Source: Nautiliaceae bacterium (GTDB taxonomy: Bacteria; Campylobacterota; Campylobacteria; Campylobacterales; Nautiliaceae). From it: DNA of 45,014 nucleotides. The notes under the pieces were generated by a model. That model searched no databases and was not told the origin of the DNA. It saw only the letters and a program-made list of their open reading frames with translations. How positions within the stretch are numbered: the stretch's first letter is position 1; the number at the start of each line of letters is the position of its first letter. The DNA is taken from positions 1 to 45,014 of the forward strand of contig JBDONT010000010.1 of the NCBI GenBank assembly GCA_039831155.1, given 5' to 3'. Position numbers and translations under genes: made by a program. Below, one piece after another: positions 19,052 through 44,325 of the stretch.

Positions 19052-20670
19052 AAAAAAGAGTAAGTAATATTTTAAGAGAACATCTAAACGAGCATCCTCC
19101 GATTCAAAAACCAAGAGAGAAAAAGTTCGGTCATTTTGCAGTACCGGTTTTTAAATATGCAAAAATAAACAAACAAAATCCCGTTGAGTTTGCTAAAAAT
19201 TTATGTGAAAAGCTTAAAGGTTGCGAAGAATTTGAGAGTGCGGAGCCTTTGAGCGGGTTTGTAAATATTAAGCTTAGCGATAAATTTTTAGATGAATTTG
19301 CAAATAGAGTAATTGAAGAGAAAGATACTTTTGCTAAAGGTAGCGGAAAAGAAAAAATACTTCTTGAATACATTTCAGCCAATCCTACGGGACCACTTCA
19401 TATAGGACACGCAAGAGGAGCGGTGTTTGGAGATGCCTTAGCACGTATAGGAAGACACGTAGGGTATGATATAGTGACTGAATATTATGTAAATGATGCC
19501 GGGCGTCAGATTAATCTTCTTGGACTTTCCGTATATCTTAGTGCAAGAGAAATTTTAGGACTTAGCGTTGAGTGGCCGGATGAATATTATAGAGGTGAAT
19601 ATATAAAAGATTTAGCAAAAGAGGCTATAAGTGAATTTGGAGAAGAGTATTTTAAAAAACCTGTAGAAATTATAGAAATTGATGGAAAAAAAGAAGCTAA
19701 ATTTGAAGATGAGAGACTAAGTCTATGGGCAAAAGACAAGATGCTTGAAGAGATTAAAAAAGATATAAAAGCCCTAAACGTTACACTGTTTGATAATTGG
19801 GTTAGTGAGAGAAGTCTTTATAAATATTGGGATGAGGTTAGAAAAATTCTTGAAGAGCACAATGCTTTATATGAAAAAGACGGGAAAATCTGGCTAAAAA
19901 GTAGTGAGTTTAAAGATGAAAAAGATAGAGTTGTAGTTAGAGAAGACGGGCGTCCAACTTACTTAGCAGGGGATATTATTTATCATTGGGATAAATTCAA
20001 AAGAGGCTATGATAGATACATAAATATCTGGGGAGCGGACCATCACGGATATATTGCAAGGGTAAAGGCTGCTATTAAGTTCCTTGGATTTGAGCCTCAA
20101 AAACTTGAAATACTTCTCTCTCAAATGGTTAGACTCCTAAAAGGTGGAGAGCCTTATAAAATGAGCAAAAGGGCTGGGAATTTTATATTAGTTAGAGATG
20201 TAGTTGAAGATGTTGGGGCTGATGCACTTAGATTTGTGTTTTTAACAAAAAAAGCCGATACTCATCTTGAATTTGACGTTGATGATTTAAATAAAGAGGA
20301 TGCAAGTAACCCAAACTATTATGTAAACTACGCTCATGCAAGAATTAGAAGTATTTTTAGAAACAAAGGAATTGAATATGACGATGTTAAGGGAGTTGAG
20401 TTAAAAAATCTTACAGAAGATGAGAAGGATTTATTGTTTTTAGCTCTTCAGCTTCCATATGTACTTGAAGATGCGTTTAATGCAAGAGAGCCACATAGAC
20501 TTACAAACTTTTTAATTGAACTGGCAAGTGAATTTCATAGGTTTTATAATAAAAACAAAGTGATTGGAAGTGAAAGAGAAGATATTAGACTAAAAATTTT
20601 AGCAGTTGCTGGAAACATTATTAAACTTGGTCTTAGTCTTCTTGGAATTAAGGCTAAGGAGAGAATGTAG
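19048..20670 (+). CDS. argS: Arginine--tRNA ligase
   Basis: [29 protein letters not shown]. Confidence 0.98.
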
Positions 20671-21092
20671 TGAAGGCGTTAATTAGTGAGTGTATGCTAG
20701 GAGTTGCGTGTAGGTATGATGGAAAATCTAAGCCTTTGAGTGATGAGATTTTAAATAAACTAAGAGAAAAATATGAGCTTGTTCCTTTTTGCCCGGAAGC
20801 CTTTTCTCTTCCAACGCCTCGCCCTCCTGCAAGGTTTGTTGGTGATAGGATAATTGATATAAACGGAGTTGATAAAACCAAAGAGTTTTTAGCTGGGGCA
20901 AAAGAAGCCCTTAGGATTTGCAAAGAAAAGAGGATAAAGATATTTATCGGAAAAGAGAAATCTCCAAGCTGTGGAGTTAAAAAAACAAGTGCTTATGTTA
21001 ATGGGTGTGAATGTAAGTGCGATGCACCTGGACTTACAAGCAAAATTTTAAAAGAAAACGGAATTGAGCTTATAAGTGAATGGGATTTGTAA
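20670..21092 (+). CDS. DUF523 / 2-thiouracil desulfurase-family protein
   Basis: SEC.LG..CRYDG, CPE, KSPSCG. Confidence 0.85.
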   Translation: MKALISECMLGVACRYDGKSKPLSDEILNKLREKYELVPFCPEAFSLPTPRPPARFVGDRIIDINGVDKTKEFLAGAKEALRICKEKRIKIFIGKEKSPSCGVKKTSAYVNGCECKCDAPGLTSKILKENGIELISEWDL

Positions 21093-34907: not shown

Positions 34908-36743
34908 TTAGTTTTTAGTTTTAAGATACCTTTTGTTTTCTATTTTTTCTATATCTCCCATTTGGTCTAAATAATCCAGATATGCTACAATATATTTTCT
35001 GCTCATTGGCATATGTTCTTTAAATTTTTTGATATCGATATAACCTTCTTTTTCTATAATTTCCCTCATTTTTTTAAGGGCTATGTTTATGTTTTTATCG
35101 GTTACGAAAAGGTTATGGGCAAGTCTTATTACTTTTTTGGATGTTGTGAGTTTTTTCATAGCGTTATCGCCCACTTTTCTGTCGATATTTAATTTTTCGT
35201 AGATGTTATAAGGAGCATCGGGGGTGAGTCCTGAATTATCAAGCAGCTGGTAGAGTCTGTGTTCTACCGATTTTGTGATATCCACTTCTCCTAAATCTTT
35301 TCTTTTATATATGTTGTCTTCTTTTATTAAATAACCCTCTTTTACAAGCTCATCAAGTACGCTTTTTATAAGTTCCGTACTTGCCCATTTTAGTCTTAGT
35401 TTAAGTGATGCCGGGGAGAGGAATGCCAATCTGTTTTTTTCGTAGGTTTCTTTTATCACTTTTTCAATCTCTTCTTTTACTTCAATTGAGAAGATATTAT
35501 AGTTTTCCTCATCTATGAATACGTTATCAAGCTGTTTTGCAATTTCCAAAGCTTCTTTTGGAGAGAGGTTAAATCTTTGATAGCTTTGAAGTAGCCCAAA
35601 TCCCCTTTTGTGATTTTGAATGAGTATTTCAAATGACGTTTTAAAATCTTTTTTGTTTAGGGCTTTAAGTAAAGAGAGTTTTTTCTTTTTCTTAATAGGG
35701 TCGCTTATAGGGTTTAATACTTCTCCACCTCCGACAACGCGACCGTTATGAAGAATTACAAAAGGGTCTTCAAATACTAAAAAGGCCTTTTCTTCAAGTT
35801 TTATAGTTGCGTATCCTTTTTTTTCTTCCGGGTTAAACATTAATAATTTCCCTGGAATTCTTTTTGCACCACTTATAAATAAAACTTCCATATTGTGAAA
35901 AAGCTCTTTTCCTTCTACAGGCTTTACGAATACGTCGATTAATTTAAATCCTCTTAAATATCCTTTGGTTGAGAGGAGATACCCTTTTTTGAATTCTTTA
36001 TGGTTGATGTTCAAATTTATAGCAACCCTTTGGTGAGTATAAGCTTCTTCTACGTCTTTTCCGTGGACTTGGAGGTTTTTAACGGTTGTTAGAGTTTTTG
36101 TTTCGTTGATATAAATTTTGTCTTTAAGTTTTACTTTTCCACTTAGAACCGTTCCCGTAACAACCGTACCGATACCTTTTAGTGAAAACACTCTGTCGAT
36201 ATAGTATCTGAAAAATTTAGAGTGGGTTATGTTTCTTGGAGGCAGGTTAAACAGGTAGTCTTTCAGTTTTTCTATACTTTCTTTATCGTAAATAGAAGTT
36301 TCGAAAATTTCAAGCAAATGCAGGTTTTTATATTTTGCAATTAAATCTCTGATTTCGTTTTTTCTTTTTTCGATTGTATCTTTGTCGGCCAAGTCGCATT
36401 TTGTAAGGGCCACTATTATGTTTTTGACTTTTAGAATGTTCAGTACTTCCAAATGTTCTATCGTCTGCGGCATTACGCCCTCATTTGCGTCTATTGCAAA
36501 AAGAGAAGCGTCAAATCCGAATGCTCCGCTAATCATATTTTTAACAAGTTTTTCGTGACCCGGGACGTCAATGAATGCGATGTTTACGTCGCCTCTTTTC
36601 ATATTCGTAAAGCTTAAATCAATGGTAATTCCTTTTTCTTTTTCTTCTTTCAGTTCGTCCCCGTTATAGCCTGTCATGGCTTCAATAAGGGATGTTTTAC
36701 CGTGGTCTACGTGACCGGCTGTACCTATAATAATATTACGCAT
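34908..36743 (-). CDS. selB: Selenocysteine-specific elongation factor
   Basis: GTAGHVDHGKT, GITIDL, DVPGHE, C-terminal SRKY winged helix. Confidence 0.97.
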   Translation of the reverse strand: MRNIIIGTAGHVDHGKTSLIEAMTGYNGDELKEEKEKGITIDLSFTNMKRGDVNIAFIDVPGHEKLVKNMISGAFGFDASLFAIDANEGVMPQTIEHLEVLNILKVKNIIVALTKCDLADKDTIEKRKNEIRDLIAKYKNLHLLEIFETSIYDKESIEKLKDYLFNLPPRNITHSKFFRYYIDRVFSLKGIGTVVTGTVLSGKVKLKDKIYINETKTLTTVKNLQVHGKDVEEAYTHQRVAINLNINHKEFKKGYLLSTKGYLRGFKLIDVFVKPVEGKELFHNMEVLFISGAKRIPGKLLMFNPEEKKGYATIKLEEKAFLVFEDPFVILHNGRVVGGGEVLNPISDPIKKKKKLSLLKALNKKDFKTSFEILIQNHKRGFGLLQSYQRFNLSPKEALEIAKQLDNVFIDEENYNIFSIEVKEEIEKVIKETYEKNRLAFLSPASLKLRLKWASTELIKSVLDELVKEGYLIKEDNIYKRKDLGEVDITKSVEHRLYQLLDNSGLTPDAPYNIYEKLNIDRKVGDNAMKKLTTSKKVIRLAHNLFVTDKNINIALKKMREIIEKEGYIDIKKFKEHMPMSRKYIVAYLDYLDQMGDIEKIENKRYLKTKN

Positions 36744-38082
36744 TTTTAATCCTGCATGAGATTATCGAATTAATAATTTTTGCAAGTTTTTCTATTTCGT
36801 CATCTAAAATACTTCTCATATCAAGTACGAATTTTTCGTTTTCTATTCTACCTATTACTAAATTTTTTCTCATAATTTCTTCCCACGTTTTCGCATTACC
36901 CTCAACTTCTACTATAATAGTGGGAATTTTTTGATTAGGCATAGTACCTCCACCTATATAAGTATAAGATTCTTTTATATGAGCTTTAAAGTTAAAAGTA
37001 AGAGAGAGTAATTTTTTAGCTTTTTTTCGTAAATGGTCCTGAGTTTGAAATATGGATTTTAAAGTCGGAATTTTATCGTATTCTTCTTTAATATAGGCAA
37101 GTGCGGTGGCTTCTATTAAAGATAGCGTAATTTTATCGACTCTAAACATTCTTAGAATTTGGTTTTTTTTAAGTTGGTCGATTAATTCTTTTTTTCCTAA
37201 AATTATTCCGGCTTGTACACTACCGAATAATTTATCTCCGCTAAAACTTATAAGAGCGGGATTTAATTTTATAATTTCCGAAATAGGAGGTTCGTTTGCA
37301 CTTAAATTATAAGGAAGTTCTGGAATATAAGCACTTCCTATATCGTAATAGTCTAAAATATTATATTTGGAGGCTAAATTTATTATATCTTTTAAAGAAG
37401 CTTCTTCACTGAAACCTTCTATGGAGTAATTTGATTTGTGAACTTTCATAAGTATCGAAGTGTTTTGTGTAATTGCTTCTTCATAGTCTTTAATTTTAGT
37501 TTTATTCGTTGTACCTACTTCTATTAATTTAGCTCCGCTTGCTTTCATAACTTCCGGTATTCTGAAGCTCCCCCCGATTTCTACAAGTTCTCCTCTTGAA
37601 ACTATTACTTCTTTATCTTTTGCAAACGTGTTTAAAATTAAAAATACGGCTGCCGCATTATTATTTACTATTAACGCACTTTCCGTTCCGAAAAGAGCAC
37701 TTAAAAGTTTTTCGCTATGGTGGTATCTGTCTCCTCGCTTCCCTTTTTCTATATCATATTCTAAATTGCAGTAACGAGTGGAACGTTTTTTTGCATAGTC
37801 GAATATTTCAGGATTTATTAAACTTCTGCCTAAATTAGTATGAACTGTAATTCCGGTTGCGTTTATTACGTTTACTATTGAAGGTAAAAGAAGTTCGTTC
37901 GCTTTAAGCTCTATTTCTTTAATAATCGCTTCTTCGTTTATCTTTTTTATTTTTTTATTTTTTATATCTTCTCTAAGTTTGTTTAAGGTTGTATTGATTA
38001 TAGGTTTTAGGATTTTTTTTGGAATGTGAGATAGCTTTTGTTCGATTTTATCCACTTTGGGAATTTTTCTAAAAAGATTCAT
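36736..38082 (-). CDS. selA: L-seryl-tRNA(Sec) selenium transferase
   Basis: INATG..VHTNLGR, SRGELVEIGGSFRIP, FSGDKL. Confidence 0.98.
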   Translation of the reverse strand: MNLFRKIPKVDKIEQKLSHIPKKILKPIINTTLNKLREDIKNKKIKKINEEAIIKEIELKANELLLPSIVNVINATGITVHTNLGRSLINPEIFDYAKKRSTRYCNLEYDIEKGKRGDRYHHSEKLLSALFGTESALIVNNNAAAVFLILNTFAKDKEVIVSRGELVEIGGSFRIPEVMKASGAKLIEVGTTNKTKIKDYEEAITQNTSILMKVHKSNYSIEGFSEEASLKDIINLASKYNILDYYDIGSAYIPELPYNLSANEPPISEIIKLNPALISFSGDKLFGSVQAGIILGKKELIDQLKKNQILRMFRVDKITLSLIEATALAYIKEEYDKIPTLKSIFQTQDHLRKKAKKLLSLTFNFKAHIKESYTYIGGGTMPNQKIPTIIVEVEGNAKTWEEIMRKNLVIGRIENEKFVLDMRSILDDEIEKLAKIINSIISCRIKNA

Positions 38083-38164: not shown

Positions 38165-39031
38165 TTATTTATGGATAATATTAATCGCTTTTTCTTTAAA
38201 TTCTTTTAATTTAGCAATTAAATCGCTAAAAATAGAATTTGTATTATGACCTTTTCTTATTTCACTTTCAAGTTTGGAAATTTCTTCTTTTAGCATTTTG
38301 TAAGTTGTTGTACTTGTACTTGTATAACCTAGTGCTTCAGCTATTACTAATTGATGTTTAGCTTCTTCTAGGTATTTTAAAGCTTGTTTTTTGTCTTTAG
38401 AGATAATTTTGCTTGCTTCTTGAGTTAGAGCCTGAGCTTTGATTAATGGAATAGGGATAATTGTGTCAACTTCAACTAATGTTGAAAGTGCCATAGCAAG
38501 TACGTCTTTTGCTTCTTTAATTTTTCCTTCATTAATATATTTAATCGCAAGATTTAAAGCTGCCGGATATGTAGCTAAAGGCAAGTTGATAGTTTTAATG
38601 TCAATTTCACTTCTTAAAGAGTTTAATACTTCTCTTGCTTGAGGAAGTTTGTTTTCTTCTACTAATATTTTAGATTCTTTAACTAAATCTTTGATTTTTT
38701 TTACGTCTCCTACAAATTGATATGCGTTTATTTGTGTGTCAACAGGTAATAAGTAAGGTGCGTTAGGAGCGTTTAATACTACACTCAATTCTCCTACGGC
38801 TTTTTTTAAAGACTCAATAGCCTTTTTTGTGTTTTTACCGTTTAAGTATATAATAGCGTCTTGTGTGTATTGAATCGCTTTTATAGCTTCTTTTATTAAT
38901 TGAGTGTTTTGAGCTTTTTGTTCGGCTTTAATTACGGCATTTTTTGAAACCGCATTAGTTTTTGCATCCGTTGCTAAAGCATTAGTTAGTAATAAACCGC
39001 TTAATGCTACTGAAACTAGTAATTTATTCAT
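38165..39031 (-). CDS. YfdX-family periplasmic protein
   Basis: Signal peptide; LLPVD, NLPLATYP, AEALGY helical pattern. Confidence 0.8.
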   Translation of the reverse strand: MNKLLVSVALSGLLLTNALATDAKTNAVSKNAVIKAEQKAQNTQLIKEAIKAIQYTQDAIIYLNGKNTKKAIESLKKAVGELSVVLNAPNAPYLLPVDTQINAYQFVGDVKKIKDLVKESKILVEENKLPQAREVLNSLRSEIDIKTINLPLATYPAALNLAIKYINEGKIKEAKDVLAMALSTLVEVDTIIPIPLIKAQALTQEASKIISKDKKQALKYLEEAKHQLVIAEALGYTSTSTTTYKMLKEEISKLESEIRKGHNTNSIFSDLIAKLKEFKEKAINIIHK

Positions 39032-39061
39032 TTTTCCCTCCTTAAATGTTTTAGTAATGCT

Positions 39062-39091
39062 ATTATAATAATTAAGTCGATTAATGTCAAG
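39062..39091 (-). promoter_or_regulatory. Consensus sigma70 promoter of the YfdX gene overlapped by a HAIR-like (HspR) inverted repeat
   Basis: Minus strand TTGACA-N17-TATAAT; CTTGACA-N7-ACTTAAT versus HAIR CTTGAGT-N7-ACTCAAG. Confidence 0.6.
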
Positions 39092-39254
39092 TATTATGAA
39101 TTGAATTAGCTCAAAATTAATTTTTATTTAAAGTTTTTTCATTAAAGATATAAGAAAAAGTTATTTTAAGAGAATCTTAAGTTTTTTTATATAAGATATT
39201 GAAAGAAAATCCTTGATTTCGGATTTTCTTTTTATTAATTCAAAAGGAGAAATT

Positions 39255-39605
39255 ATGAGACGCTTTGCAAAAATGTTGGTAGCAGGGTTGCTACTTGCAA
39301 GTGTCAGTGCCAGTGTAGCAATGGCGGACTACAATAAAGGGCTTAAGTATTTTCAAAGATACATTAAAAAAGCCCATAAAATTAAATCTCCGGATTTATT
39401 AAAAAAAATCGGAGTTAAAACATTGGATGATTTAAATGCACTTTTTAAAGATAATGCAAAGTCTTTAATTGAAAAGTTAAAAGCGGCAGGTCTTAAAGAT
39501 GAAGCTAAAGGTGTTGAGAAAATTGCTAAAAAGCATAAATTGAAAGATTTAAAAGATTTCTTTATCGGAGTATTAAACGGTAAACTTCCGGCTGGCTGAA
39601 GCTAA
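39255..39605 (+). CDS. Small secreted Lys-rich protein; candidate selenoprotein ending ...KLPAG-U-S (ends at 39599 if TGA is a stop)
   Basis: AAGGAG RBS, signal peptide ...VAMA/D, GGC TGA AGC TAA followed by a SECIS-like hairpin. Confidence 0.7.
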
Positions 39606-39608
39606 TAT

Positions 39609-39630
39609 TAAGGGCACAGGTTGTGCCTTA
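39609..39630 (+). promoter_or_regulatory. Candidate bacterial SECIS element
   Basis: TAAGGGCACA-GGT-TGTGCCTTA stem with one bulged G; loop GGT at +20 to +22 after TGA 39597-39599. Confidence 0.6.
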
Positions 39631-39683
39631 CGTTTTAATTTGATTTTTTTTTACATATAAAGTAAAATTTTAATCCTTCAAAA

Positions 39684-39782
39684 GGAGGGGATGTGACCCT
39701 GGTGGGCACCCCGGGCTTCAAACCCGGTGGGGCGGCAGGTGTCTGTCTGCCCGGAAGGTTCGATTCCTTCCCCCTTCCGCCA
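39684..39782 (+). tRNA. selC: tRNA-Sec (anticodon TCA)
   Basis: CCGGG-CTTCAAA-CCCGG anticodon arm, long variable arm, GGTTCGATTCC T arm, GCCA end; near selAB. Confidence 0.97.
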
Positions 39783-39832
39783 AACTTCAAAAATACCGCT
39801 ATTTCGCATTTTTTAAAAATCAAACTAAGCAT

Positions 39833-42080: not shown

Positions 42081-43052
42081 TTACATTTCTTTTAATATAG
42101 CTTCTAAATCTTTTTTAAATTCATTTTTTAATTCTTCAGATTCTAATATTATTATATTAGGTATCCATTTTTTTATAAAAGGCAGAATTTCCATAGGTTG
42201 GGTGTAGGTCAGTTCAAAAATAACTCCTTCGTCGTTTTCTTCGATAAATTTTTGGGATGAGAGGAATTTTTTCATATCTTTTCTAAAATAATGAGCCACT
42301 TCTTTTTTTGCAAGCAATCTTGCTTTTTTAGGCTCCACTCCGTATAGAGTTAGTGAATTTTGTATATTTTGCAGGTATTTTTCATATTTTTCGACTGAAT
42401 TTTTTTGAAATTTTTTTTCTTTAAGTTTACCGTTTTCTTTGATGAAAACAGGCTTGACGTCTTTTATAAAAGATATTCTTAAAAATCTGAATTTTTCGTT
42501 TTCATCTTCACACGCAAGATACCAGTTGTTATCGATAAATACCAATTTTATAGCTTTTACTGTCAGCGTTTCTTCATCTTTGATTATTTTCAGGTATTTG
42601 TGTTCTTTTACGGCATTTTTTATTTTGGAAAAAAGTTTTTCTTTTGTTTTCAAATCCTCCATAATAGAGTTTTTGAAAATAAAGATGTTTTTTTCTGATT
42701 TAATGAGTTTTTTGGCTTTTTTTCTTGTTTCATCTTCAAGGTTTTTTAAATATTCCGGGTTTGTTTGGGATAAATCTTGTAAAATAAAACTTATATCATC
42801 GCTTTTTGTCAGAATTTCGAATATTATATCGGCGGTATCGTTTATTTTGTAGCATGTTTTTTTGTTTTTGAAATCTTTTTGTATGACATCTTCGCCAAAA
42901 TATTCTGCAAGTCCGTCGAGAATATCCTTAACTCTTCTTTCTACCTGGTCGAGATTTAAAATCTCTTTGATTTCCAAAGGGGTAAAACACTGTTTTGCAG
43001 ACATTAGCAGTTTCAAAACATCAAAAGCCTCTTTTGCTTTTTTATGAATCAT
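42081..43052 (-). CDS. HTH-WYL-WCX transcriptional regulator
   Basis: N-terminal wHTH (ERRVKDIL), LVFIDNNWYLAC, FRFLRISFI, C-terminal EILPFIKKWIPNI. Confidence 0.92.
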   Translation of the reverse strand: MIHKKAKEAFDVLKLLMSAKQCFTPLEIKEILNLDQVERRVKDILDGLAEYFGEDVIQKDFKNKKTCYKINDTADIIFEILTKSDDISFILQDLSQTNPEYLKNLEDETRKKAKKLIKSEKNIFIFKNSIMEDLKTKEKLFSKIKNAVKEHKYLKIIKDEETLTVKAIKLVFIDNNWYLACEDENEKFRFLRISFIKDVKPVFIKENGKLKEKKFQKNSVEKYEKYLQNIQNSLTLYGVEPKKARLLAKKEVAHYFRKDMKKFLSSQKFIEENDEGVIFELTYTQPMEILPFIKKWIPNIIILESEELKNEFKKDLEAILKEM

Positions 43053-43078
43053 ATTAATTCCTTAAATAAATTTATTTT

Positions 43079-43109
43079 GCCATTTTTTGTCATCATAAAT
43101 GATTACAAT
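43079..43109 (+). promoter_or_regulatory. Putative WYL-regulator box 2 plus -10 (darT promoter)
   Basis: GCCATTTTTTGTC-ATCATAAATGAT-TACAAT. Confidence 0.7.
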
Positions 43110-43139
43110 TTTATCATAAATTATTGAGAAAGGATGGTC

Positions 43140-43661
43140 ATGGGAAAAATTACTGAATTATTTGTAAAAGAACATTTAGAAAAAAACGGTATCAAAAGTT
43201 TATGGCATTTTACAGATCTCTCAAATTGGGAATCAATTAAAAAATATGGGATTCAGTCATTATTTAGAATAATCAAAGATGATATTAAGGTTTCTCGTTT
43301 CGGTGCAAATGCTTTATCTCATGATTTGGATTATTATAAAGGATTAGACAGATATGTTCATTTGAGTTTTACAGATGACCATCCTATGTATCATATTGCA
43401 AAAAAGGAAAAAAGAATAATAAATCCGATTTGGATAGAAATTGATATAAATGTTTTATTTGATAAAAAAGTATTGGTTTGTAAAGGTGTCGCAAACAAAA
43501 CAAACAGTGTTTTATTAAATTTAGCCGGTGTGTTGAACTTTGATTTTGATAAAATGTTTCATGATGATTTTGAAATAAGAAAAGAAGCAAGAAAAGCGGA
43601 AATACTTATATACGATTGTATTGAGACTAAATATATAAAAGGAGCTTATTATGGCAAGTAG
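43140..43661 (+). CDS. darT: DarT-family (DUF4433) DNA ADP-ribosyltransferase toxin
   Basis: LWHFT..SN..SI..YGI.S, YVHLSF..DHPM, catalytic-type AEILI; ATG 43140 better spaced from AAGGA than 43134. Confidence 0.8.
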   Translation: MGKITELFVKEHLEKNGIKSLWHFTDLSNWESIKKYGIQSLFRIIKDDIKVSRFGANALSHDLDYYKGLDRYVHLSFTDDHPMYHIAKKEKRIINPIWIEIDINVLFDKKVLVCKGVANKTNSVLLNLAGVLNFDFDKMFHDDFEIRKEARKAEILIYDCIETKYIKGAYYGK

Positions 43662-44325
43662 ACCGGCATTTATAGCAACTAAAAATGATAAACTTGTAGA
43701 AATTATAAATGTGGAATTTGAATATTTTACCGGATTTGCCGCTGTTCAAAAAGCAAAAACGAGAGATTCTTTTCATAATGCCATCAGAGAACATGGATAT
43801 GAAAAAATACTTGAAGTTTCTACTAATTCCGATAACGAATTAGGCTGGCAATTAAGCGCTTTTAATTTAATGACGGATTATGATGGAGAGAAAATTCCGC
43901 TTGAATGTGCTTTTCAGGGCAGTAAGGTATTTGAATACGGAGGGCCATATACGGATATATTCAAAAAAACAAACATAGAAGCCAAAAAAGACAAAAGACT
44001 CAAAAATTCCGGTAAAGTTATTAAATTTAGATATGAAGGAAACGAGTGGGAAACCGAACCTCAGACCGCATTTTACGACTGGTTGTATATTTCAACGGTA
44101 TATAAAAATTACCCGCACTTGATAGAAGAACTTGCAAATTATGAAGTTTTTACCGATATAGCCTTTAATCCGAAAAAATCAGTCAACTGCCAGGCAAAGA
44201 GCTGTGCTATTTTGGTATCATTGTATCATATAGGCAAACTTGAAGAGGCTTTGTCTTCAAAAGATAATTTTTTGAGAATTGTTTATGGATATAAAGAAAA
44301 ACCAAAACAGGGGAGTTTGTTTTAA
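43651..44325 (+). CDS. DarT1-associated NADAR-type antitoxin
   Basis: MASRPAFI, ILEVST.S, LSAFNL, ECAFQGSKVF, FYDWLY, FTDI.FNPKKS.NCQA; overlaps darT stop. Confidence 0.8.
   Translation: MASRPAFIATKNDKLVEIINVEFEYFTGFAAVQKAKTRDSFHNAIREHGYEKILEVSTNSDNELGWQLSAFNLMTDYDGEKIPLECAFQGSKVFEYGGPYTDIFKKTNIEAKKDKRLKNSGKVIKFRYEGNEWETEPQTAFYDWLYISTVYKNYPHLIEELANYEVFTDIAFNPKKSVNCQAKSCAILVSLYHIGKLEEALSSKDNFLRIVYGYKEKPKQGSLF

Follow-up and report, generated by a model that had tools for sequence, protein, structure and literature searches.

Does a TGA codon at the 3' end of a short open reading frame (ORF) beside the genes for selenocysteine (Sec) insertion end the protein, or does it specify Sec? The question is raised by a locus in a 45,014-nucleotide stretch of DNA from a Nautiliaceae bacterium (GenBank assembly GCA_039831155.1, contig JBDONT010000010.1, positions 1 to 45,014 of the forward strand), the whole of which is referred to below as the window. 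The plain ORF, as read from the sequence, runs from an ATG at 39255 to position 39596 and encodes 114 amino acids, and its 3' end reads GGT AAA CTT CCG GCT GGC TGA AGC TAA. Comparative evidence, all of it drawn from nucleotide and protein sequences, makes it highly probable that the UGA (39597-39599, +), which is aligned with the family's invariant C-terminal Cys, is decoded as Sec and that the product is an exported, haem-less relative of small class I c-type cytochromes with a selenol tail. The putative selenoprotein coding sequence would then span 39255-39605 (+), with 114 codons, the UGA as Sec115, Ser116 and a proposed true stop, TAA (39603-39605, +), two codons past the UGA; in other genera the TAA comes directly after the TGA. 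Homologues align over the full length of this 116-residue precursor and have Cys at position 115.

In the mechanism proposed here, SelB charged with Sec-tRNA(Sec) would bind a GGU-loop hairpin that lies 12 nt past the UGA and wholly behind the real stop, and the ribosome would thereby insert Sec115, add Ser116 and stop at the TAA. The product would then be exported by means of its predicted signal peptide, giving a mature form of about 92 residues whose only chalcogen residue would be the selenol on the conserved tail GK(L/I)PAG-U.

Several features of the ORF fit this outline. A Shine-Dalgarno-like AAGGAG, read from the sequence, is found 5 nt before the ATG (39244-39249, +). The N-terminus, MRRFAKMLVAGLLLASVSASVAMA/D, has by inspection the n-h-c pattern typical of a Sec-type signal peptide (here named after the export pathway, not the amino acid), which is predicted, as judged by eye, to comprise residues 1-24 (39255-39326, +; ...AMA/DYNKG), and the same pattern is common, again by inspection, to all aligned homologues. 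The translated 114-residue product has no Cys. An initial annotation made from the letters alone had described the ORF ending, the second stop two codons after the TGA, the signal peptide and the lack of Cys; all of these were recovered from the sequence, the signal peptide by eye, and so was the GGU-loop hairpin that it had placed directly behind the ORF at +20 to +22. It had also located the gene between selA/selB and selC, with which Pfam (selA, selB), ARAGORN and Rfam (selC) agree.

Proposed exchange of Sec and Cys at the terminal codon

A six-frame search detected the family protein in 37 of 61 related genomes, most of them (26 of its 29 other genomes) from one bacterial family, which source names and record titles identify as the Nautiliaceae. 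In relatives, 28 loci provided 33 copies whose 3' ends were read, L028 (a contig-end fragment), L030 (no match at the threshold) and L065 (an apparent pseudogene) being left out of the counts. Twelve copies end in ...GK(L/I)PAG-TGA and the other 21 have a Cys at the same codon, the latter terminating in C, CS, CG or CN. As the initial annotation had anticipated, homologues thus carry Cys at the TGA position, and in none of the 33 does another residue, a TAA or a TAG occupy it. In four genomes, all belonging to the window's genus, the TGA is succeeded by AGC-TAA; in eight others, spread over three genera, TAA comes next. A tree of 40 copies requires at least three exchanges of Sec and Cys forms across well-supported branches.

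Protein databases give a blurred picture of the same ends. Among 31 matches in a collection clustered at 90% identity, 17 either terminate at PAG or have the reading 'PAGW', a terminal Cys is present in 12, and the named matches are all hypothetical proteins, save one whose name is evidently unrelated. A peptide-pattern search of genome contigs returned 21 loci, all of them in metagenome-assembled genomes of Nautiliaceae, Nautiliales or other Campylobacterota, and added no new lineage.

If the TGA were an ordinary stop, the protein would end at Gly114, its terminal Cys would have been lost, and the hairpin would be only a Rho-independent terminator. Annotation pipelines side with this view in that they record the 114-residue product, as a hypothetical protein; the initial annotation had expected gene callers to truncate it. 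The view appears very unlikely, as it requires that, in 12 cases out of 12, the disappearance of an otherwise invariant Cys be accompanied by TGA at that very codon, and also by a second stop 0-1 codon further on, a hairpin at a fixed 12 nt, a conserved GG loop and a genome that has the Sec machinery.

A paralogous subfamily, with a mature N-terminus of the form AI(S/N)PY..GYR.YIRY.KH, is encoded between an rluA-like gene and a DUF3373 gene. In four selB-positive genomes its members end in ...PPG/PLG-TGA-(CTT/ATG)-stop, with a G-loop hairpin 12 nt past the TGA, and are located directly upstream of DUF3373 (L063:3231-3569, -; L064:3188-3526, -; L066:1539-1880, +; L067:300-692, -). Five others (L011, L015, L018, L068 and L070) are Cys forms that end in ...GC(N/M)-stop. 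The hairpin of the paralogue lies inside an operon, between co-oriented genes and before the DUF3373 gene, and lacks a T-run, which therefore speaks against a terminator as its sole function.

A conserved hairpin within the sel locus

The hairpin of the window, TAAGGGCACA-GGT-TGTGCCTTA (39609-39630, +), lies entirely 3' of the TAA. Its core, GGGCACA-GGT-TGTGCC, occupies 39612-39627, with the loop GGT (GGU) at 39619-39621, that is, at +20 to +22 counted after the A of the TGA, and CGTTTT is found 3' of it. In the RNAfold prediction (-10.4 kcal/mol), 39611-39618 are paired with 39622-39629. The hairpin may be likened to the selenocysteine insertion sequence (SECIS) of E. coli fdhF. According to the DUF466 paper, the epsilonproteobacterial SECIS is a 5-6 bp apical hairpin a few nt past the UGA with an invariant G in its loop (Cravedi et al., 2015; PMC4607533), a description that the hairpin at 39609-39630 fits with its stem of 6-7 bp, its distance of 12 nt from the UGA and its loop G.

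This element is conserved in position and structure. It starts 12 nt past the TGA in all 12 TGA forms, which belong to three genera, and the sequence of the spacer varies by clade. The consensus of the TGA forms is GGGC-NNN-GG(T/G)-NNN-GCC, in which the variable triplets are ACA/TGT, TTC/GAA and TAC/GTA; the stem has 6-7 bp, and the loop is GGU in 11 forms and GGG in one. All seven stem pairs are maintained in the 11 distinct sequences, three of them being altered on both sides. The covariation score was matched by none of 500 shuffles, and shifted registers gave at most 56% pairing. No such hairpin follows the Cys among the Cys copies read, and the Cys forms run on into the next gene.

A genome-wide control covered 1513 ATG-started ORFs of at least 100 amino acids in the window's genome, and scored hairpins that start 11-14 nt past the stop, have a stem of 5 bp or more and contain GG in a loop of 3-5 nt. 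Such hairpins follow 2 of 387 TGA-ended ORFs, as against 0 of 1126 TAA- or TAG-ended ones, so that the association of hairpin and terminal TGA is more than chance in this genome. The two are the ORF at 39255 and a second candidate for a C-terminal selenoprotein (see below). The absence of hairpins at such a spacing behind the 1126 TAA- or TAG-ended ORFs also argues against a terminator-only role.

Transcription of the locus is suggested by metatranscriptome contigs from two runs of one vent sample, which extend over 39227-39786 and 39217-39736 and are identical to the window. They cover the ORF, the hairpin and the gene for tRNA-Sec, and one of them joins all three; the intergenic region 39064-39186 has no RNA contig cover, and a neighbouring contig ends in adapter sequence at 39037. 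This cover fits a transcribed gene with an inefficient terminator. Since the contigs run through the hairpin into tRNA-Sec (to 39736 and 39786), they speak, weakly, against a hairpin that is only a terminator, contigs not being proof of a single transcript. The mRNA and tRNA-Sec may be co-transcribed, and overlapping transcripts from a promoter-like site at 39640-39668, between the hairpin and tRNA-Sec, are equally possible. At the other end of the gene, a 12-bp hairpin, GAAAGAAAATCC...GGATTTTCTTTT, occupies 39201-39232 (+), immediately ahead of the ribosome-binding site in what is taken to be the 5' leader, and both RNA contigs start within it, at 39217 and 39227.

Some observations weigh against decoding of the UGA as Sec, or limit the evidence for it. 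A scan for terminator consensus lists 39611-39629 followed by ACGTTTTAAT, and the hairpin may thus serve as a terminator, alone or in addition. Rfam searched at E up to 10 returned tRNA-Sec only and no SECIS family in the region, a null result that, for so short a hairpin, counts as evidence neither way. All the RNA contigs were assembled from one sample, and such contigs do not establish strand, ends or a single transcript. The 12 TGA forms all come from one bacterial family and are therefore kin, so that the counts overstate their independence.

The genes required for Sec insertion surround the ORF. The selB gene (34908-36743, -) encodes the Sec elongation factor with its SECIS-binding winged helix (PF00009 and PF09107; TIGR00475, 319.9 bits, above cut-off), and selA (36736-38082, -) encodes selenocysteine synthase (PF03841, E 4.4e-133). 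A YfdX-family gene (38165-39031, -) is interposed between selA and the ORF. The gene for tRNA-Sec, selC (39684-39778, +), has the anticodon TCA according to ARAGORN, matches RF01852 with 67.7 bits and is found 79 nt downstream of the ORF. With selD, located on another contig (L034; C38:30067-30987), the genome has all of selA, selB, selC and selD. The in-frame TGA of selD is close to the N-terminus, and its SECIS is part of the coding sequence, the hairpin GCUCC-GGA-GGAGC again being 12 nt past the TGA, and the same design is present in 13 further Sec-type selD genes of relatives, the selD SECIS being nearly invariant in the bacterial family. SelD thus counts among the selenoproteins of this genome. 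The formate dehydrogenase-alpha model matched three molybdopterin-enzyme loci, and none of these contains an in-frame stop. Of the two known selenoprotein families that were searched for, FdhA and SelD, only SelD was thus identified in the window's genome, and the protein encoded at 39255 would therefore help to explain why the Sec machinery has been retained.

The distribution of the machinery follows that of the TGA. For selB, a match exceeding the curated cut-off was obtained in 11 of the 12 genomes that have a TGA form, and the twelfth, only 55% complete, has a Sec-type selD and a tRNA-Sec beside the gene. Where only Cys forms were read, selB was present in 2 of 16 genomes, and none of the 14 Cys-only genomes without selB above cut-off has a TGA form. 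The expectation of the initial annotation that a conserved TGA-(NNN)-stop with a hairpin would be restricted to genomes with Sec machinery is thus borne out across three genera. In addition, tRNA-Sec lies about 70-610 nt from the gene in 12 of 12 TGA-form loci, versus none of the 6 Cys-form loci scanned. It is downstream of the gene in two genera, upstream in the third and divergent in one genome, and a convergent paralogue separates the two in two genomes.

This constant linkage to selC might be taken to mean that the hairpin is chiefly a SelB-binding regulator of the sel locus, which tunes read-through or processing into tRNA-Sec, Sec insertion being incidental or absent. A model for such a regulator is the SECIS-like element before E. 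coli selAB. That the hairpin precedes tRNA-Sec by 57 nt, with both on one strand, and that one RNA contig spans both, would agree with this reading. Nevertheless, it seems most improbable, as the order of gene and tRNA-Sec varies in the ways just described, the distance that is conserved is that from the UGA and not that from selC, and the promoter-like site lies between the hairpin and tRNA-Sec. Furthermore, the combination of UGA and hairpin recurs far from selC in two other gene families.

The surroundings of a sel cluster were also read in a Cys-form relative, in which a 14-kb stretch (L037:1-14250) comprises an fdhA-like ORF stopping at ...HCARL, likely a Sec site, together with selA, selB, genes for TusA-DsrE and TusA-MerT fusions, an HMA gene, a DsrE gene and selD. 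There the sel cluster, with its TusA/DsrE-like and metal-binding genes, adjoins the family gene and an operon for DUF3373 and a Psr/Phs-type reductase.

Probable cytochrome descent and gene context

Family models say little about the protein. Pfam and NCBIfam yielded no family for it (NCBIfam at E up to 10) and none for 35 family members including Cys-type relatives, and a sequence-profile search of the PDB gave matches at chance level only (best E, 0.0047). A profile search of 1.84 billion representatives was more informative, with 97 matches that include distant relatives at E 1e-5 to 1e-17. A Cys is present in the last four residues of 72 of them, 4 stop just before the Cys, and 8 carry a CxxCH motif. 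The distant matches are exported proteins of 107-115 residues that end in ...DSGNVPSC; the small Campylobacterota proteins ending in Cys that the initial annotation had mentioned do exist and correspond to these relatives.

Two of the matches that carry CxxCH score above the Pfam cut-offs for cytochrome c (PF00034 / PF13442). In a joint alignment of haem-bearing and haem-less members, a Gly, a Phe, a Gly-x-x-Pro motif and the terminal Cys are invariant, and the CxxCH of the haem-bearing relatives is aligned with Y-I-K-K / K-A-H in the window protein. In this alignment, CxxCH is missing from the Nautiliaceae branch, as is any conserved His or Met, and the branch is accordingly predicted to be devoid of haem c binding. 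A search of the Atlas with the plain 114-residue ORF, using its stored model, found both the nearest feature and the structure neighbours among Campylobacterota 'cytochrome C' clusters (score 0.93; TM 0.56-0.62). On the strength of the alignment, the CxxCH-bearing matches and the Atlas neighbours, the protein is best described as having probably descended from a small c-type cytochrome and lost the haem, its C-terminal Cys or Sec being the conserved functional residue.

The neighbourhood of the Cys forms offers an indication of what this residue might do. In 9 of 14 cases the ORF downstream of them codes for an outer-membrane protein of the DUF3373 type; in two others short N-terminal fragments are found at contig ends, and three are unrelated. 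In the stretches read further, the genes after DUF3373 encode a molybdopterin oxidoreductase with a twin-arginine translocation (TAT) signal, a 4Fe-4S subunit and an NrfD-type membrane subunit. The best NCBIfam match of the oxidoreductase is the thiosulfate reductase PhsA, below cut-off, and an SQR-like flavoprotein also follows in one relative. The initial annotation had proposed a periplasmic redox protein or a carrier of metal, sulfur or selenium. The gene context favours a role with a sulfur reductase of the Psr/Phs type and, because Cys-type orthologues open such operons, possibly a function as a periplasmic sulfur carrier or redox arm. It is tentatively suggested that the terminal Sec or Cys may be a reactive arm in the periplasm that serves the DUF3373 protein and the Psr/Phs-type reductase, by binding or transferring sulfane sulfur, which is the simplest option, or by delivering reducing equivalents; in the window's genome the Sec form would have moved from that operon to the sel locus. 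The analogy would be with SoxY, with its C-terminal GGCGG arm, and Sud, which are small periplasmic sulfur carriers, co-encoded with sulfur enzymes, that pass sulfur to a partner enzyme through one reactive Cys located on a terminal arm or close to it; both differ from the window protein in fold and have no Pfam or sequence match to it, so that the likeness would be functional.

A more specific and rather doubtful version of this proposal holds that a porin-linked polysulfide or sulfur reductase in vent Nautiliaceae has the protein as its periplasmic sulfur shuttle, a component so far missing. Sulfane sulfur would be taken up by the shuttle at the DUF3373 protein, or by way of it, in the form of a persulfide or a selenosulfide, and be handed to the Psr/Phs-type molybdoenzyme. 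If so, sulfur respiration in Sec-using lineages would be directly dependent on selenium, and the haem-bearing relatives would mark the origin of the carrier from Cys-bearing sulfur cytochromes. A role of this kind would tie selenium to the Psr/Phs-type sulfur-respiration operon and to DUF3373, and would provide a handle on how sulfur is fed to the reductase. Searches of the literature on DUF3373 with polysulfide reductase and on psrA1B1CDE brought up nothing on the window protein.

The placement of the Sec form tells against these functional proposals. In the subfamily of the window, that form is never found in a DUF3373 operon and always lies inside or beside the sel cluster. The window's genome does have a DUF3373-reductase operon, with no family gene in front of it; the one family member in this genome is the Sec form at the sel locus. 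The assignment of function rests on the neighbourhood of Cys-type orthologues, and placement at the sel locus fits the handling of selenium equally well. The main functional rival is thus a selenoprotein that captures periplasmic selenide or selenite, or delivers it to the Sec pathway, and takes no part in sulfur respiration; the adjacency, in one relative, of the family operon to a sel cluster with TusA/DsrE-like and metal-binding genes is also in keeping with it. This alternative is nonetheless considered distinctly unlikely. Cys-type orthologues abound where neither selB nor selD was found, and so can have no role in Sec synthesis there, they are co-encoded with DUF3373 and the Psr/Phs-type reductase operon, and the association with selC could be due to nothing more than inheritance as a single block.

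Known terminal selenoproteins and a second candidate

A Sec at the very end of a bacterial protein has precedents. The paper on DUF466 presents this family as the first case of a terminal Sec with the SECIS behind the stop, and predicts more such families (Cravedi et al., 2015; PMC4607533). In this KCU-star/DUF466 protein of Campylobacterales (PMC4607533; NF033934), Sec is likewise the last residue before the stop and the SECIS is located behind it; as in the window family, homologues have Cys at the Sec position and the protein was overlooked by standard searches and annotation. Nevertheless, there is no sequence relationship between the two (no NCBIfam match at E up to 10), and DUF466 is, by its description there, cytoplasmic and ends in Cys-Sec, in contrast with the window protein, which is predicted to be exported, has no Cys and appears derived from the cytochrome c fold. 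The UXX-star and GUXX-star families (NF041114, NF041211 and NF041212), listed in Table 1 of a 2026 review (PMC13188914), have Sec among the last few residues, so that the SECIS must be partly or wholly past the stop, and their models do not match the window protein.

Two further comparisons bear on the chemistry of the tail. Mammalian thioredoxin reductase, to which PMC4607533 also refers, ends in Gly-Cys-Sec-Gly, its penultimate Sec being on a flexible tail that acts as a mobile redox arm, with the SECIS located within the untranslated part 3' of the stop. It differs in being eukaryotic, in using another type of SECIS and other factors, and in pairing Sec with the neighbouring Cys. The window protein has no partner Cys in its chain, and any selenosulfide would therefore have to form with a substrate or with another protein. 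The small Campylobacterota c-type cytochromes and haem-less proteins that end in ...DSGNVPSC are its homologues, with the same size, a signal peptide and the invariant Gly, Phe, Gly, Pro and terminal Cys, and differ in that some of them have CxxCH and the Nautiliaceae branch has none.

No such family appears among the 119 families of Table 1 of the review (PMC13188914), although the supplementary family list of BSepDB could hold a prior listing. Searches of the literature for selenoproteins in Nautilia brought up only a genome paper, which notes tRNA-Sec. Because no model matches it and Table 1 does not list it, the protein is rated as representing a new selenoprotein family, which would work like the star selenoproteins and is a member of none of them. 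If this is correct, a family with two paralogous subfamilies would be added to the bacterial catalogue, together with the OsmC-like candidate described next, both having been overlooked owing to a Sec in last or penultimate position and a SECIS past the stop, a class whose undercounting the 2015 paper had predicted. It would also set right the annotation of what is now a conserved 'hypothetical protein' of sulfur-reducing Campylobacterota at hydrothermal vents.

The second candidate is an OsmC-like gene, for a protein of about 159 residues, in the window's own genome (L042:1256-1744, -, equal to contig C20:120255-120743). Its product ends in ...DDDGFGCVA-TGA-AGC-TAA, and the hairpin GCTCCGA-GGT-TCGGAG follows at the same distance. 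Among 20 loci of relatives read (including L044-L062), 11 have TGA, one or two codons and a stop, with covarying G-loop hairpins, and 9 end in ...GFGCACCN(S/T/A)-stop. The protein bears only a weak resemblance to NF041052, 'OsmC-related (seleno)protein' (23.5 bits versus a cut-off of 95). In the OsmC-like selenoprotein already listed, Sec belongs to a UxxT motif; in the candidate it would be in the C-terminal tail. As this gene has the same layout of TGA and hairpin, it supports the notion that the Nautiliaceae lineage routinely puts the SECIS behind the stop codon.

Other loci were set aside. A third match of the first hairpin scan, on contig C20 (+), looks like the antisense of a real gene. 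The DUF523 gene of the window (20670-21092, +; GTG start), of the 2-thiouracil desulfurase family, has Cys at the Sec site (…SECMLG…) and is thus an ordinary Cys form; known Sec forms of DUF523 have the motif SxSUG. Near the sel locus, a regulator with WYL/WCX domains (42081-43052, -) is followed by a DarT-like single-stranded DNA ADP-ribosyltransferase (43134-43661) and then by a DarT1-associated NADAR antitoxin (43651-44325), and this group of genes (42081-44322) looks like a toxin-antitoxin or defence module.

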